Program-made: the position numbers and the translations under genes
The notes under the pieces: generated by a model
Seen by the model: only the letters and a program-made list of their open reading frames with translations
Databases searched by the model: none
Told to the model about the DNA's origin: nothing
Assembly: GCF_056746865.1 (NCBI RefSeq)
Contig: NZ_CM163382.1
Length of the DNA stretch: 64,000 nucleotides
Reading direction: 5' to 3' (one strand)
Part shown: positions 56,576 to 61,898 of the stretch, piece after piece
Numbering within the stretch: the stretch's first letter is position 1
Layout: each line of letters opens with the position of its first letter

Positions 56576-57319
56576 TTATAGCAGTGCCAGCAGGAAGACC
56601 AGTTCACCAAGCTCTATAGCAGCTCCCAGCGTATCGCCGGTTTGCCCGCCCAGCGTACGTTTGAGAAGCTGACCGAGGATGAAAATCGCCACCATCGTCA
56701 CCACCATAGCAGCCACACCATGCATACCCGGCAATAATACGGCAGCAAAAATAGCGGCTAAGCCGAGTGTGACGCAGGTTTGTCGCCCATCAATTTTGCC
56801 AATGAACACATTGCCAAGCCCTTCTTCCCGCGCATAACGATGACGATACATCAATAATGCGGCAGTCCCGCGGCTGACCGCACATGCTGCCGCCAGCGAT
56901 GCAAGGATCGGTTCGCCACGCAGAGCCAACTCGCTTAATACCAGAATCTTTGCCAGTACAACAAAAATCAATGCCAGACCGCCATGGGTGCCTAAACGGC
57001 TATCACGCATGATTTCCAACATGCGATCGCGGCTACGTGCAGAAAATACGCCATCACAGGTATCGGCGAGGCCGTCCAGGTGGAATCCCCCGGTCATCAG
57101 CGCCAGCACAAGTACGCTAAACAGTGCCGCCAGTGGTACGCCACACCATGCCTGCAGCACCATGAAGACCAGCCCGCTAATCGCGCCAAGCAATAATCCA
57201 ATTAAAGGAAAAGTAATAATACCGCGAGAATAATGCTCGAAATCCAGTCCCTGGGACCAGCGACGCGGTACAGGCAGACGCGTAATAAATGAGAGCATCG
57301 CCCAAAATAATTTACTCAT
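56576..57319 (-). CDS. cobS: Cobalamin (5'-phosphate) synthase CobS
   Basis: 247-aa membrane product from [11 protein letters not shown]; ATGA overlap with cobU. Confidence 0.92.
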
Positions 57320-57861
57320 TTGATTTTTACTCCAATACCCGAAACCACCAGCCATACTTCATTTGCCGCAGCGGCCAACTGCTGATTTACCCGCCCGGCA
57401 ATATCACGAAAATGTCGTGCCAGACGACTCTCCGGCACAATCCCCATTCCCACTTCGTTAGTCACTAATACAACCTTTGCGGGGCAACGTTGGCAGGCAG
57501 CAATCAACGACTGAATCTCAGCATTAATCGCCTGTTCCATCGCCTGATAATCCCATTCATCAGGGTCTTTATCGCCGCCATAATCAAACAACAGATTAGT
57601 CACCATTGTGGTAACGCATTCCAGCAACACAACCTCATTCGGGTTAATGTCTGCATGAATTAATTCATCAAGATGTTGCCAGCGCTCCACTGTGCGCCAG
57701 TGCTCCGGGCGGCCTTGCCGATGATGTTCTATCCGTGCAGCCATCTCATCATCAAGGATTTGCGAGGTAGCGATATACAGAACCTGTGAAGAGTCCCCAA
57801 TAAGCGCCTCTGCGTGGCGACTCTTCCCGCTCCGTGCGCCCCCCGTCACCAAAATCATCAT
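57316..57861 (-). CDS. cobU: Adenosylcobinamide kinase / adenosylcobinamide-phosphate guanylyltransferase CobU
   Basis: 181-aa ORF with P-loop GGARSGKS. Confidence 0.93.
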
Positions 57862-59131
57862 ACCGACTCCTGATTCAAATGTATGATGGTATTCATTGAA
57901 CAGAACAATGGATCCCCCACCGTTGCTGACCGCAAAACATTTACGCGATTAATACTGCGCGTAATATAATTAAAAATCCAGCATTCTCAATCCATTACGA
58001 AATAAGATGGCATTACGGAATAGCCAGACTTTCTCGTGTTAACGTCCGACAAAATGTGTCATTGACAGCGGTTTCTGTGGATTGACACATTTCATTCAGA
58101 TAATGAATTAATGCTACTGCCGGACCAACCAGCAAACGGGCATTGTGTTCTGAAATCCAGGCTATTGATTCAACGTCAGCGACAGTTCTGCGCTGTAAAA
58201 GAACTTGTAAAACAACGCAATAGAATTATCCGGAATGGTGGCGACTATGCACTAGAACACCACAATTTCGCTCTCTCGGTAAGGCACTGTCACAGCATTC
58301 AACAGAATGTGACTTGCCAGATTTATTAGCGCCACCAGATGTTTAACCGGGTAACCACGACCCAGTCGGGGATATATTCCATCTTCTCGCTGACATCATC
58401 AAGAATAAAAAGGTTTATCACACTCAGAGCAACGTTCTTCAGCAGGCGGGATAATTCTTCAACATTTAAAAGATGTGTTATTAAAGGCATACAAACTGGA
58501 CGTATTGTATTTTCTTTTGGTGGTTGACCTAAGGTAGCAGTTTATCCTGATGCGCTGAGATTTCTGTAATATCTACGTCAACATTCTCCTCGAATAGAAA
58601 ATGCAGCCCCGGCAAGTGATTCACATTTTTTAACAAAACGTTGTTAGCGTGCCATTTTCAGAAGCTCTCCAAGAAAGCGAATTCTTTTCTCAAATTCTGC
58701 ATTCTCAGACACAGCTTTCTACTCCATGGCAATGGCCCAAATACGAAGTTGCTCAGGATCATTAGTGGTGCTGAGAAGTTAAATAACCATGCGGAGTACC
58801 ACTCGTCATCACGTATTTATATATCATGAAGCTATTGTTGTGTTTTGTACATCAGTAGATGTATTCTGATATACTCCTTTTGCTAGACATAACCTTTCAC
58901 CTGCTTGCAAAGCTTCTGTGTTCTGACATTGCCAAATTGTTGCAATTCTGTATCCAGCCTTCTTTCAGTCATAGCTTCGGGCCGCGATAAGACTCACTGA
59001 TCTGACCCTGATTCCTCTTGCAGACTTTATAGACCAATTAAAATGCAGTTTCTGCAGGTCAACGTCTGACCATCATTGTCATCACTCTGGCCATTAGAGT
59101 AACCTTCTGCATTCATCCTTTTGTAAAAAGT

Positions 59132-59803
59132 TTATAGACTGGCCCCCTGAATCTCCAGACAACCAATATCACTTAAATAAGTGATAGTCCTGATACAAGT
59201 TTTTAGAGTAGTCATTAGTGAACAGATAATTGTTAACTTAGAACCAGTAAAATGCAAACGACGCACCACGCTGGGAAAATCGCTGCTATTCAGCAGAGTT
59301 TTGTACCGAGAATTGTGGCCAGCCACTTATTGCTCTCGCGTAAGCAGGTATCCCCATCGTTTACCAGTCCAGCACATCTTGTGGTCAGGCAGAAGAAGAG
59401 CAAACTGTTACTGGACTCACTGCATGCATGGTGGAGAAAAATGCCACGCTATCCAAAAATCCAGACTGGGAGAATGGTTCAGCTGTGTACTGAATCAGTG
59501 GGGCGCACTCTGTTATTACAGTGTTGACGGTCAGGCGGAGGCAGACATAATGCCGCGGAAAAAGCCCTTTGTGCCATCTGTCTCGGAAATAAAAACTTTA
59601 TGTTCTTCGGCGGCGAGCGCAGTGCACTGTTGTATGGGCTTATCGGCACTTGCCTTCTGAACGACATTGATCCGGAAGCGTATCTGCGCCATATCCTGAG
59701 CGTACTGCCGGAATAACCTTCCAACCGTATTGATGAACTCCTGCCATGGAACGTAGTTCTCACCAATAAATAAGCATCAATATGATTCTCCATTAACGCT
59801 TAC
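59132..59803 (+). mobile_element. Composite IS debris: IS2-like left end with decayed orfA, fused to the 3' end of an IS66-family transposase gene and its GTAAGCG-type terminus
   Basis: 59132..59186 identical to the IS2 left terminus, then a diverged, frameshifted InsC-like stretch; 59550..59775 encodes ...FFGGERSALLYGLIGTCLLNDIDPEAYLRHILSVLPE and, after a frameshift, NRIDELLPWNV; terminus ...CATTAACGCTTAC ends 59803. Confidence 0.7.
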
Positions 59804-59911
59804 CTTTTCTCAGGCTATTTTTGCTTTTTTTTGCTTTTCCCCGCCACTTTATGGTGATTATCACATCAATATACATCGATAGATATTAACGTAACTGAAG
59901 TGAGGTGAAGC

Positions 59912-61126
59912 ATGAAATTTGAACGCCATCATGAAATATTGAAACGACTCAGTAAATTCGGTTCTGTAAAAGTATCCGATCTGTCCAATAGCCTCAATGT
60001 AACGAAAGAAACTATTAGTTCAGATCTTAATGAACTTGCCAGGCTTGGCTATCTGACTCGATGTCATGGCGGTGCTTTTATCGTCCTAGACTCGCTTGAT
60101 ACTATTGCGAAAAATGAAATCGCTTATGCGCTTGAAAATTATGATACAGCCCAGGGAATAAAAAAAGGCCACTCAACTATGAAAAGTCAAGTATGCGTTA
60201 TTGGTTCGTTTAATGTTGATATCATCAGTTATTTGCCGAGGCTTCCCACTATCGGAGAATCGCTTCTGGCAAGTAATTTTATATTTTCACCGGGGGGAAA
60301 AGGCTGTAACCAGGCGCTGGCAGCAAGCTTTGCCGATACTGATGTTTATTTCATAACAAAAGTAGGTACAGATCACTTTAGTGATTATGCGATCAACTTT
60401 ATGAATTCGTCTAAGATTTATAAAAGTATAATTTATCAAACGAAAGAAACGCAAACCGGAACTGCCACGATCCTTGTTAATGAAGGTACTGGCGATAATG
60501 TTATTGCGATCTATCCCGGTGCCAACATGACAATGTCGTCCGATGAAATAACTATTCAGAAAGAAGCGATTATTAATTCTGATGTCATACTTCTGCAGCT
60601 CGAAACAAATTATACCGCTCTGCAACAAGCGATCACATTGGCGCAAAAAAACAGTATCCCGGTCATTATTAACCCGGCACCCTATAATGATATCGTCAAC
60701 GAACTTATTCAGGATGTTGATTATATCACCCCCAATGAAACAGAAGCTGGTTTACTGTCCGGCATAGACGTACACGATCTTGAATCAGCTAAACGAGCTG
60801 CAGAAGCTATCCACAATAAAGGGGTAAAAAACACGGTTATCACGCTCGGTAGCAAGGGCTCGCTCGCATTTGATGGCAAAAAATTCATTCATTCGCCAGC
60901 GTTTCCAGCGGTCGTTAAAAATACGGCAGGAGCCGGGGATGCGTTTAACGGCTCTCTGGCATCAGGACTTGCGAAAGGAAAATCACTGGAATCAGCACTG
61001 TGTTATGCCAGCGCCTTTGCATCCCTAGCGGTGGAGACAAGCAATGCTTCCGACATGCCTGAACATGAATCTGTGATACATCGAATTCAGAGTATACATT
61101 ATCAGCAAACTATTTTTACGCATTAA
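59912..61126 (+). CDS. Fusion protein: N-terminal DeoR-type HTH regulator domain plus C-terminal PfkB/ribokinase-family carbohydrate kinase
   Basis: 404-aa ORF; HTH region VKVSDLSNSLNVTKETISSDLNEL; kinase motifs GGKGCNQA and TAGAGDAFNG; RBS GAGGTGAAG before ATG. Confidence 0.75.
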   Translation: MKFERHHEILKRLSKFGSVKVSDLSNSLNVTKETISSDLNELARLGYLTRCHGGAFIVLDSLDTIAKNEIAYALENYDTAQGIKKGHSTMKSQVCVIGSFNVDIISYLPRLPTIGESLLASNFIFSPGGKGCNQALAASFADTDVYFITKVGTDHFSDYAINFMNSSKIYKSIIYQTKETQTGTATILVNEGTGDNVIAIYPGANMTMSSDEITIQKEAIINSDVILLQLETNYTALQQAITLAQKNSIPVIINPAPYNDIVNELIQDVDYITPNETEAGLLSGIDVHDLESAKRAAEAIHNKGVKNTVITLGSKGSLAFDGKKFIHSPAFPAVVKNTAGAGDAFNGSLASGLAKGKSLESALCYASAFASLAVETSNASDMPEHESVIHRIQSIHYQQTIFTH

Positions 61127-61139
61127 GAAGGGACAGAGA

Positions 61140-61898
61140 ATGAATAACACCAAAAAATCACTAAAAGTGCTCTTTATTGGGGAATCCTGGCATATTCATA
61201 TGATTCATTCAAAAGGATATGACAGTTTTACCTCAAGTAAATATGAAGAAGGTGCGACCTGGTTACTCCAGTGTCTGAAAAATAGTCAGGTAGATGTCAC
61301 CTATATGCCAGCACATACGGTACAAATTGCCTTCCCTGAAGATGTGGCACAGTTAGAACAATATGATGCCATCGTTATTAGTGATATTGGTAGTAATACT
61401 TTCCTGCTACAAAATGATACTTTTTATCAGCTTCGCATAAAACCAAACGCTCTCGAACTGATTAAAGAATATGTGAATAACGGTGGTGGGTTATTGATGA
61501 TTGGCGGCTATCTCTCATTCATGGGAATTGAAGCAAAAGCCAATTATAAAAATACAGTTCTGGCTGATGTGCTCCCGGTTACGATGTTAGATGGTGACGA
61601 TCGTGTCGAAAAACCAGAGGGTGTTATTGCACAGCCATCACAACCTGAACATCCAGTTATTAAAGGGTTCTCTGAATATCCTTTTTTCCTAGGTTATAAC
61701 CGGGCGATCGCTAAAGAAAATGCTGAGGTGGTATTAACAATAAACAACGCTCCATTACTGGTCTTTGGTAACTATCACAACGGGAAAATAGCCTGCTTTA
61801 TGAGTGACTGTTCACCGCACTGGGGTACACAGCAGTTTATGTCCTGGCCGTTCTATACCGCGTTGTGGGTAAATATACTGACTCATATTGCAAGATAA
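61140..61898 (+). CDS. Hypothetical cytoplasmic protein, possibly class-I glutamine-amidotransferase-like (ThuA-like) fold
   Basis: 252-aa ORF, 14 nt after the preceding gene; fold assignment is a tentative impression. Confidence 0.5.
   Translation: MNNTKKSLKVLFIGESWHIHMIHSKGYDSFTSSKYEEGATWLLQCLKNSQVDVTYMPAHTVQIAFPEDVAQLEQYDAIVISDIGSNTFLLQNDTFYQLRIKPNALELIKEYVNNGGGLLMIGGYLSFMGIEAKANYKNTVLADVLPVTMLDGDDRVEKPEGVIAQPSQPEHPVIKGFSEYPFFLGYNRAIAKENAEVVLTINNAPLLVFGNYHNGKIACFMSDCSPHWGTQQFMSWPFYTALWVNILTHIAR

Follow-up and report, generated by a model that had tools for sequence, protein, structure and literature searches.

What the DNA in front of the cobUST genes of Escherichia coli is made of, and whether an inverted repeat within it controls those genes, are questions raised by positions 57862-59131 of the 64,000-nt stretch of E. 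coli chromosome that was analyzed here and is called the window. This segment was 100% identical to the corresponding DNA of strain 14EC029, and at least 80% of it was found in 2857 of 5426 complete E. coli genomes. Apart from an IS5H insertion in K-12, positions 57800-58255 and 58252-59136 showed 99.1 to 99.7% identity to that strain. An earlier reading made from the letters of the window alone (the sequence-only reading) had termed the segment a downstream flank of cobU, which is true only in plus-strand coordinates. Because cobU lies on the minus strand, as do cobT and cobS, 57862-59131 is its 5' (upstream) flank. Three features in the flank (58013..58156, 58165..58353, and 58326..58490, all on the minus strand) had already been flagged by PGAP in the RefSeq annotation of identical genomes. 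The gene and its translation signal are positioned as follows.

57316..57861, minus strand: cobU, with its ATG at 57861-57859
57867..57871, minus strand: cobU Shine-Dalgarno sequence AGGAG, 5 nt ahead of the ATG and kept in every Escherichia sequence aligned

The cobU-proximal flank consists of cbiP and cbiG vestiges

Two remnants of cobalamin biosynthesis genes occupy the part of the flank that adjoins cobU.

57862..58000, minus strand: remnant of the final ~46 codons of cbiP (cobyric acid synthase); the stretch no longer codes and forms the leader and promoter region of cobU
58013..58156, minus strand: C-terminal remnant, 47 codons plus a stop, of a truncated cbiG-derived ORF, carried by PGAP as a pseudogene labelled "cobalamin biosynthesis protein"

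An nhmmer profile of 36 enterobacterial cbiP 3' ends matched the window at 58000..57833 (E 8e-17), and tblastn recovered traces of CbiP residues ~454-478 that contained in-frame stops, e.g., LYYAQY* against FHYAQYK. Since the profile match runs down to the ATG and is joined by these protein traces, the nominally intergenic DNA at 57862-58000 is the dead end of cbiP. The cbiP stop codon overlaps the cobU ATG in Citrobacter, Salmonella, and Klebsiella.

The adjacent 47-aa fragment gave no match of its own in NCBIfam or Pfam, and Escherichia/Shigella relatives were the only matches in word-indexed protein searches. It was colinear with a 111-aa ORF of the island-less E. coli N3 (E 8e-4 for the N3 ORF) and with intact ORFs of 144-145 aa in E. 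albertii, E. marmotae, E. whittamii, and cryptic Escherichia. These 144-aa ORFs matched positions 1-127 of the 351 in the CbiG equivalog NF004463 (E 1e-19 to 1e-23), and exhaustive phmmer searches linked them to full-length CbiG proteins such as P0062 (358 aa); the CbiG profile scores of the Escherichia ORFs were 69-84 bits versus a cut-off of 546 bits. With 47 codons here, at most 144 aa in any Escherichia, and scores below the cut-off, the element is therefore a vestige and not a full-length CbiG (~351 aa). We considered and dropped the assignment of the PGAP remnant to cbiP, as NCBIfam points to cbiG and the trace of cbiP is found downstream of the remnant.

In E. albertii, E. marmotae, E. 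whittamii, and others, the gene order is pduBA / pduF pocR, riboswitch, 144-aa ORF, and cobUST. The cobalamin riboswitch (RF00174) scored 105-113 bits in E. albertii, E. marmotae, E. whittamii, E69, and L090, and it was absent upstream of cobU in the window (Rfam, positions 57000-60500, E up to 1). In island-less E. coli, the cbiG stub is fused to a 3' fragment of pduV that is followed by tmaR-yeeA-sbmC-dacD, and this fusion is a single deletion scar. The Escherichia lineage has thus lost the cbi genes of the cob operon. A truncated cbiG, corresponding to the N-terminal third, became joined to the last ~46 codons of cbiP in front of cobU, with the junction somewhere in 58014-58052. E. coli subsequently lost pocR and the riboswitch, along with the 5' portion of what remained of cbiG. 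A cbiG/cbiP junction inside the spacer of the inverted repeat described below was rejected, the tblastn homology to CbiP at that place (E 0.005-0.009 in a tiny database) being too weak.

Insertion-sequence remnants lie beyond an island junction

From 58158 onward, the flank had the following composition.

58157..58158, no strand: junction of the ancestral backbone with a CP4-44-type island; homology with island-less E. coli (N3 type) ends at 58157
58165..58353, minus strand: IS4-family transposase fragment with an internal stop (PGAP), equivalent to K-12 yeeH plus the start of yoeG
58347..58790, minus strand: N-terminal third (residues 1-151 of 512) of an IS66-family transposase, equivalent to the K-12 pseudogene yoeG
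58791..58913, minus strand: IS66 vestige continued, with the 3' end of tnpB and the interval separating it from the transposase gene (found by blastn, and by tblastx against L089)
58914..59131, no strand: ~215 bp without assignable homology, more than 99% common to the left end of K-12 CP4-44
59133..59313, no strand: IS2-like terminal fragment, 82-84% identical to K-12 IS2F and to the IS2 ends found in phage records

The IS4-family fragment was identified by tblastn against annotated IS4-family transposases (55% identical residues across 62 aa, E 5e-7) and had no Pfam match. The IS66 vestige was recognized with greater significance (tblastn, 47% identity, E 5e-24); it holds five in-frame stops and contains the 54-aa ORF at 58326..58490. 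At the DNA level, the vestige showed ~70% identity to plasmid IS66 elements, including the 3' end of tnpB. This homology stops near 58913, and a complete element with tnpA, tnpB, an intact transposase gene, and terminal repeats is not present. By eye, a tnpB vestige had seemed to reach ~59100, an impression that neither Pfam nor tblastx supported; Pfam searches of the minus-strand frames of 58780-59135 gave only a noise-level hit to HTH_39 (E 0.031).

The left end of CP4-44 in K-12 carries the same pseudogenes, yeeH (b4639, the IS4 fragment) and yoeG (b4640, the IS66 vestige). The window differs from K-12 in having no IS5H, which in K-12 is inserted at the position equivalent to 58252-58255, and in what follows 59136, where yoeH/yoeA of K-12 are replaced by an IS2-like end, a C-terminal piece of IS66, and an islet with a sugar kinase. 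Positions 59132-59136 are a real breakpoint at which collinearity with K-12 ends. In a phage collection, the flank had matches of the IS2 type only, plus one mislabelled record of 284 bp, and plasmid matches of more than 99% were discarded as chromosome-sized or misassigned records.

In this lineage, the edge of a CP4-44-type island abuts the older DNA at 58157/58158 and has brought the IS fragments with it, and no working gene lies past 58158 up to 59131. The description of the flank as decayed DNA in the sequence-only reading was apt, and all pieces but one can now be named: vestiges of cbiP and cbiG, then IS4, IS66, and IS2-like fragments. Its placement of the IS debris past 59131 was not, the debris beginning ~1 kb earlier, at 58158.

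An inverted repeat within the cbiG vestige

The same reading had pointed to an imperfect inverted repeat near the start of cobU as a potential operator of the cobUST promoter.

58052..58092, no strand: inverted repeat with arms AAATGTGTCA (58052-58061) and TGACACATTT (58083-58092), each 10 nt and 100% complementary, separated by a 21-nt spacer

The repeat exists and is located upstream of cobU, but it is a perfect 10-nt palindrome combined with a 7-nt direct repeat (ATTGACA at 58061-58067 and 58081-58087) rather than an imperfect one, and with a distance of 191-231 nt from the ATG it is not particularly close to the start of cobU. According to Markov simulations, the chance of at least one repeat of this kind (at least 10 nt, loop up to 40) was 0.058 for 1.27 kb of sequence and 0.015 for the 300 bp by cobU, figures that apply to a repeat selected after the fact; as a chance event, it is mildly unusual. 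Across the whole window, 19 such repeats were present compared to 2.6 expected. The repeat lies wholly in the cbiG vestige, and its minus-strand arms encode the residues E-M-C-Q and N-D-T-F. Alignment by eye to full-length CbiG (...GMLG...ATDV) suggests that both arms may be derived from cbiG.

Conservation of the palindrome was poor. Its arms matched at 10 of 10 positions in the window and in one Escherichia sp., at 9 in K-12, at 8 in N3 and E. whittamii, at 7 in E69, and at 6 in E. marmotae, and the changes in the two arms were independent among lineages. An exact 61-mer that includes the perfect palindrome occurred in 558 records of complete E. coli genomes, versus 3463 records with the one-mismatch K-12 allele. 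Conservation therefore gives no support to an operator of the cobUST promoter, the perfect form being a minority allele and only 6-8 of the 10 positions matching in other lineages and species. In the comparison across cobU upstream regions that had been proposed along with the operator, the half-sites are thus not conserved (6-9 of 10 outside the window allele). A CRP-type site was also considered and rejected, since the CRP-type pattern is absent at the repeat.

Promoters and start site of cobUST

Signals for cobUST transcription were located in both vestiges.

57963..57990, minus strand: proximal sigma-70 promoter-like site TTGAGA-16-TATATT, 10 of 12 matches in a consensus scan, in the cbiP vestige
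58093, minus strand: K-12-equivalent cobU start site (PMC3415461), transferred by its 232-nt distance from the ATG and a 51-nt sequence
58100..58128, minus strand: candidate distal promoter with -35 TTGGTC (58128-58123), a 17-nt spacer, and -10 CATTAT (58105-58100), in codons of the cbiG vestige

The proximal TTGAGA is kept across Escherichia, and the same hexamers are listed for cobUST among the "constitutive promoters" obtained by genomic SELEX with RpoD holoenzyme (PMC3946193). The inverted repeat lies 62-102 bp upstream of this -35 element. For K-12, the atlas of Kim et al. gives one cobU start site (NC_000913.2 2064020, minus strand; 49 reads, 232-nt 5' UTR; PMC3415461, Table S1), with a read count exceeding that of most entries in the table. 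The 51-nt upstream sequence published with it ends ...TTATCTGAATG, the last G of which is just 5' of AAATGTGTCA. Placed at 58093, the start site directly precedes the repeat, which therefore covers +2 to +42 of that transcript; such a position is compatible with an operator as well as with a 5' hairpin. This start site comes from a single K-12 data set that was enriched with terminator exonuclease. The supplements of the Cappable-seq, ROSE, and EDL933 data sets have no cobU entry, and Mendoza-Vargas 2009 lists a single read at +18 with a pointer to RegulonDB cobUp1, 128 nt away.

The distal promoter was not reported by the consensus scan because it has only 7 of 12 matches. K-12 carries TTGTTC as its distal -35 where the window has TTGGTC, and the spacing of the two elements was set by a 9-bp deletion specific to the K-12/window lineage. 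Insertions have occurred close by: ISEc8 in O157:H7 interrupts the distal -35 at what corresponds to ~58126, ~33 bp upstream of the start site, and IS5 in K-12 lies 159 bp upstream of the cobU start site. The working parts of the flank, which are demonstrated in part, are cobUST expression signals only, namely the Shine-Dalgarno sequence, the candidate proximal promoter, and the distal start at 58093.

RNA folding and interpretation of the repeat

When folded as RNA, the repeat with its flanks yielded -21.2 kcal/mol (z -3.95). Folding from +1 (58093) gave an 11-bp terminal stem of -16.2 kcal/mol (z -2.2) with zero unpaired 5' nucleotides, so that in silico the primary transcript is predicted to begin directly with a stem. 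The K-12 allele folded from +1 at -15.8 kcal/mol (z -1.6), and the RNA pairing is kept in both major alleles because the K-12 change turns an A-U pair into G.U. In five other lineages (N3, E. marmotae, E. whittamii, E69, and E. albertii), the z value of the hairpin was ~0. Over nine Escherichia sequences, the helix was 93% paired with one compensatory change (AU to GC), and the covariation pair counts were not above those of shuffles (273/500 and 98/500).

The flank is a three-layered scar of dead cbi sequence and IS debris, and we consider it probable that the repeat in it is incidental and not a conserved operator. Former cbiG coding sequence would have become palindromic in this lineage by chance, through drift. 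A distal transcript starting one base before the repeat would then include it as a 5'-terminal hairpin, which may be neutral or, at most, mildly stabilizing for that minor transcript. Several observations count against this incidental origin. A perfect 10-nt palindrome less than 300 bp from a gene start has P ~0.015 by simulation; the repeat begins exactly at +2 of the reported start, as a functional hairpin or operator would; and pairing is kept in both major alleles, the helix being 93% paired with its one compensatory change. In addition, Lawrence and Roth in 1995 reportedly found E. coli cobUST to be induced by cobinamide.

A doubtful alternative, which cuts across the other interpretations, concerns the start site itself. 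Position 58093 could be the processed end of read-through from the IS/island side that was mis-scored as a start because the hairpin protects it from the 5'-phosphate-dependent exonuclease with which starts were enriched, and the repeat at this place would then be a technical artifact. Terminator exonuclease enrichment was indeed the method, the -35 and -10 elements are weak (7 of 12 matches), the 5' end falls precisely at the foot of a stable stem, and insH6 of the K-12 IS5 has the orientation of cobU and reads towards it. However, the 49 reads are well over most table entries, and CATTAT at -12 to -7 with TTG 17 nt upstream constitutes a plausible weak promoter. Trimming to the base of the stem would, moreover, need a 5'-to-3' exonuclease, and E. 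coli is not known to have one that could do so.

Also unlikely, and to a greater degree, is a selected 5'-terminal stem-loop that would shield the distal cobUST mRNA from 5'-end-dependent decay (RppH/RNase E). Stabilizing stem-loops of the ompA-leader type were reportedly described at the 5' termini of E. coli mRNAs by Emory, Bouvet and Belasco in 1992. As in that type, the stem predicted for the cobU leader begins at +1/+2 and leaves no single-stranded 5' tail: the arm begins directly after the start site at 58093, the 11-bp stem folded from +1 (-16.2 kcal/mol, z -2.2) has no free 5' nucleotide, and pairing is preserved in the K-12 allele via G.U. Unlike the ompA type, its thermodynamic excess is weak (z -1.6 to -2.2) and it is not conserved outside one E. 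coli lineage: the majority allele reaches z -1.6 only, and the other five lineages have values of ~0. Covariation no greater than in shuffles, a proximal promoter that can drive cobU without the repeat, and a start site resting on one data set also speak against selection of such a structure.

Little credence is given to a combined version, in which the distal promoter and the palindrome would form a regulatory module born in dead cbiG. The 9-bp deletion would have set TTG 17 nt from CATTAT, and the palindrome, as a hairpin or an operator, would set the output of cobUST and possibly account for cobinamide induction.

A DNA operator for the distal cobUST promoter, at which a regulator occupying +2 to +42 would block or modulate initiation and possibly underlie cobinamide induction, is very unlikely. 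Operators of the lacO1 type are palindromic and overlap +1. The repeat resembles them in its perfect dyad symmetry and its site just downstream of the mapped +1, and its chance of arising at random (P ~0.015-0.06) is in its favor, but it differs from them in having a 21-bp spacer between 10-bp arms and no conservation. The half-sites are 31 bp apart from center to center, which is atypical of a dimer operator; the perfect form is the minority allele (558 versus 3463 records); the arms drift independently in lineages with intact cobUST; and there is no CRP-type match. Both arms appear to be former cbiG codons, and the nearby ISEc8 and IS5 insertions are tolerated.

ORF content, small proteins, and RNA families

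A separate question is whether the flank encodes anything small. An ORF listing bore out the earlier inventory of zero minus-strand ORFs of at least 60 aa and three plus-strand ORFs of 62 to 72 aa. On the minus strand of 57862-59131, there were just two shorter ORFs, at 58013..58135 (40 aa) and 58326..58490 (54 aa).

58111..58329, plus strand: ORF of 72 aa
58339..58527, plus strand: ORF of 62 aa
58641..58829, plus strand: ORF of 62 aa

These three plus-strand ORFs are antisense to the vestiges, and NCBIfam searches with them gave no match of note (best E 0.068). Simulated sequence of the same composition had a mean of 1.4 ORFs of at least 60 aa per strand, with P(0) = 0.21 and P(3 or more) = 0.15; the counts equal random expectation, and the pattern is therefore that of non-coding DNA. 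ORF counts show the absence of a coding signal, and no more than that. NCBIfam and Pfam searches with the 54-aa minus-strand ORF and the 47-aa remnant produced nothing usable, and Rfam returned zero matches, sRNA families included, across 57000-60500 at E up to 1. The conserved small protein or sRNA that would have contradicted the picture of decay was thus not found in these searches, Rfam being empty and the ORFs lacking family matches; the sole conserved small-protein homology in the flank is that of the cbiG-derived ORF, which is cut to 47 codons in the window.

That 57862-59131 harbors a functional small protein or sRNA overlooked by ORF inspection is highly improbable: some genomes have the 54-aa ORF at 58326..58490 annotated by PGAP as "hypothetical protein", the SELEX list includes promoters of yoeG and yoeH (PMC3946193), and the region is more than 99% conserved across more than 2800 genomes, but that ORF is part of the IS66 transposase vestige, the ORFs have no family match and Rfam is empty even at E up to 1, island-less E. 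coli do without the region, and the high identity reflects recent common descent inside E. coli.

Comparison with the cbi-cob operon of relatives

The flank has the same neighborhood and strand logic as the cbi-cob operon of Salmonella and Citrobacter, with the end of cbiP before cobU and a CbiG-derived ORF upstream. Loss of the cbi-cob operon in the E. coli lineage was reportedly described by Lawrence and Roth in 1995 and 1996. In Salmonella, the operon order is pduBAF-pocR-cbiABCDETFGHJKLMNQOP-cobUST (PMC5282855), and the Escherichia relatives with pocR and the riboswitch have this layout minus the cbi genes. In the window, by comparison with Salmonella and Citrobacter, only ~46 cbiP and 47 cbiG codons are left, which contain stops and are no longer in frame; both pocR and the riboswitch have been lost, and cobUST must use promoters embedded in dead sequence.

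Much of this was already known: the structure of the flank is annotated (PGAP; K-12 yeeH, yoeG, and CP4-44) or fits the published loss of cob/pdu genes, and the start site is published. Only details are new, namely that the PGAP remnant is cbiG-derived, that the 139-bp "intergenic" DNA is cbiP-derived, that both cobUST promoters are in dead sequence, and that the repeat abuts the start site. The flank offers a textbook case of the dismantling of the E. coli B12 pathway, in which stubs of cbiG and cbiP stand before the retained cobUST and were later overrun by IS elements, and it illustrates that dead coding DNA is reusable as promoter and leader for surviving genes. Searches for operators upstream of cobU should allow for the formerly coding origin of this "intergenic" DNA. 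Beyond tidy annotation, the value of these details is small.

An open cbiG stub in other Escherichia

The riboswitch-controlled 144-aa cbiG stub of other Escherichia is a more interesting lead than the 1.27-kb flank. Behind the riboswitch, the stub is kept open in non-coli Escherichia, with 435 nt and no indels in four species. Its dN/dS was 0.30-0.61 versus 0.13-0.18 for cobU and 0.03-0.05 for cobS, and a rough simulation gave P ~0.0085 for all four copies staying open under random substitution. The stub may be a leader ORF that riboswitch-coupled expression requires, or it may encode an independent small protein. One genome has retained the riboswitch and the stub with cobUST gone, and E. 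albertii has a decayed cobU.

A cbiG stub retained in other Escherichia

Gene order in E. albertii, E. marmotae, E. whittamii, 'E. coli' E69, and one further genome is pocR, then a cobalamin riboswitch, then an ORF of 144 to 156 aa that corresponds to the N-terminal third of CbiG (the cbiG stub). The intact stub ORFs lie in these other genomes, and the window holds only a remnant at 58013-58156 on the minus strand. In the Escherichia species that retain pdu, the pduF-pocR interval also holds, on the opposite strand, an sRNA homologous to STnc230 of Salmonella (65-81 bits). Both features are listed by comparison locus, in the coordinates of that locus.

cbiG stub ORF and STnc230 homologue in comparison loci
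L006 (E. albertii): stub ORF, 4001-4435; STnc230 homologue, 2465-2548
L008: stub ORF, 4001-4435; STnc230 homologue, 2461-2544
L009: stub ORF, 5443-5877; STnc230 homologue, 3903-3986
L011: stub ORF, 5432-5866; STnc230 homologue, 3889-3972
L090 (GCA_023277125.1): stub ORF, 5001-5471; STnc230 homologue, 3427-3509

The dN/dS of the stub ORF was 0.30-0.61, no indels were present across four species (435 nt), and a rough simulation of random substitution in four copies gave a probability of ∼0.0085 that all four would remain open by chance. The stub may represent either a leader ORF that has been retained or a small CbiG_N protein.

Gene loss around the stub

In E. albertii a decayed cobU lies between the stub and an intact cobS (L006 4436-4957). 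GCA_023277125.1 has lost cobUST entirely and retains pocR, the riboswitch, and the stub, which adjoins ldtA (L090 5472-5697). In island-less E. coli, the stub is joined head-to-head with a C-terminal fragment of PduV/EutP (Pfam E 1.7e-27; L005 4134-4768 and L004 5182-5358), beyond which lie tmaR-yeeA-sbmC-dacD. This fusion is a single deletion scar, left by the loss of pocR, pduF, and pduA to pduV.

Raoultella possesses a second cobU locus, arranged as riboswitch, 319-aa ORF, cbiP, and cobU, and cobU is present twice in one Raoultella MAG (L034 3127-6007; L016, L036).

Promoters and insertion sequences at cobU

In the proximal cobU promoter (57963-57990, minus strand), TTGAGA aligns with the cbiP coding consensus CTGGCG and TATATT with TCCATT, so this promoter seems to have been created or improved by AT-enriching drift in the decayed end of cbiP. 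O157:H7 carries an intact ISEc8 (IS66-like) within the cbiG vestige (L091 1148-3460; window equivalent ∼58126), at the -35 element of the candidate distal cobU promoter. The K-12 IS5H lies at window equivalent 58252-58255.

Other features of the window

Four apparently intact ORFs adjoin the IS debris.

ORFs within 59912-63957
DeoR-PfkB fusion, 404 aa
Glutamine amidotransferase, 252 aa
DMT transporter, 321 aa
Phosphotriesterase-related protein, 344 aa

In the PGAP annotation of strain 14EC029, three of the four are frameshifted or internally stopped, the exception being the glutamine amidotransferase. The whole window contains 19 perfect inverted repeats (arms of at least 10 nt, loop of at most 40 nt), compared to 2.6 ± 1.5 in simulations; presumably they consist of terminators and REP-like elements.
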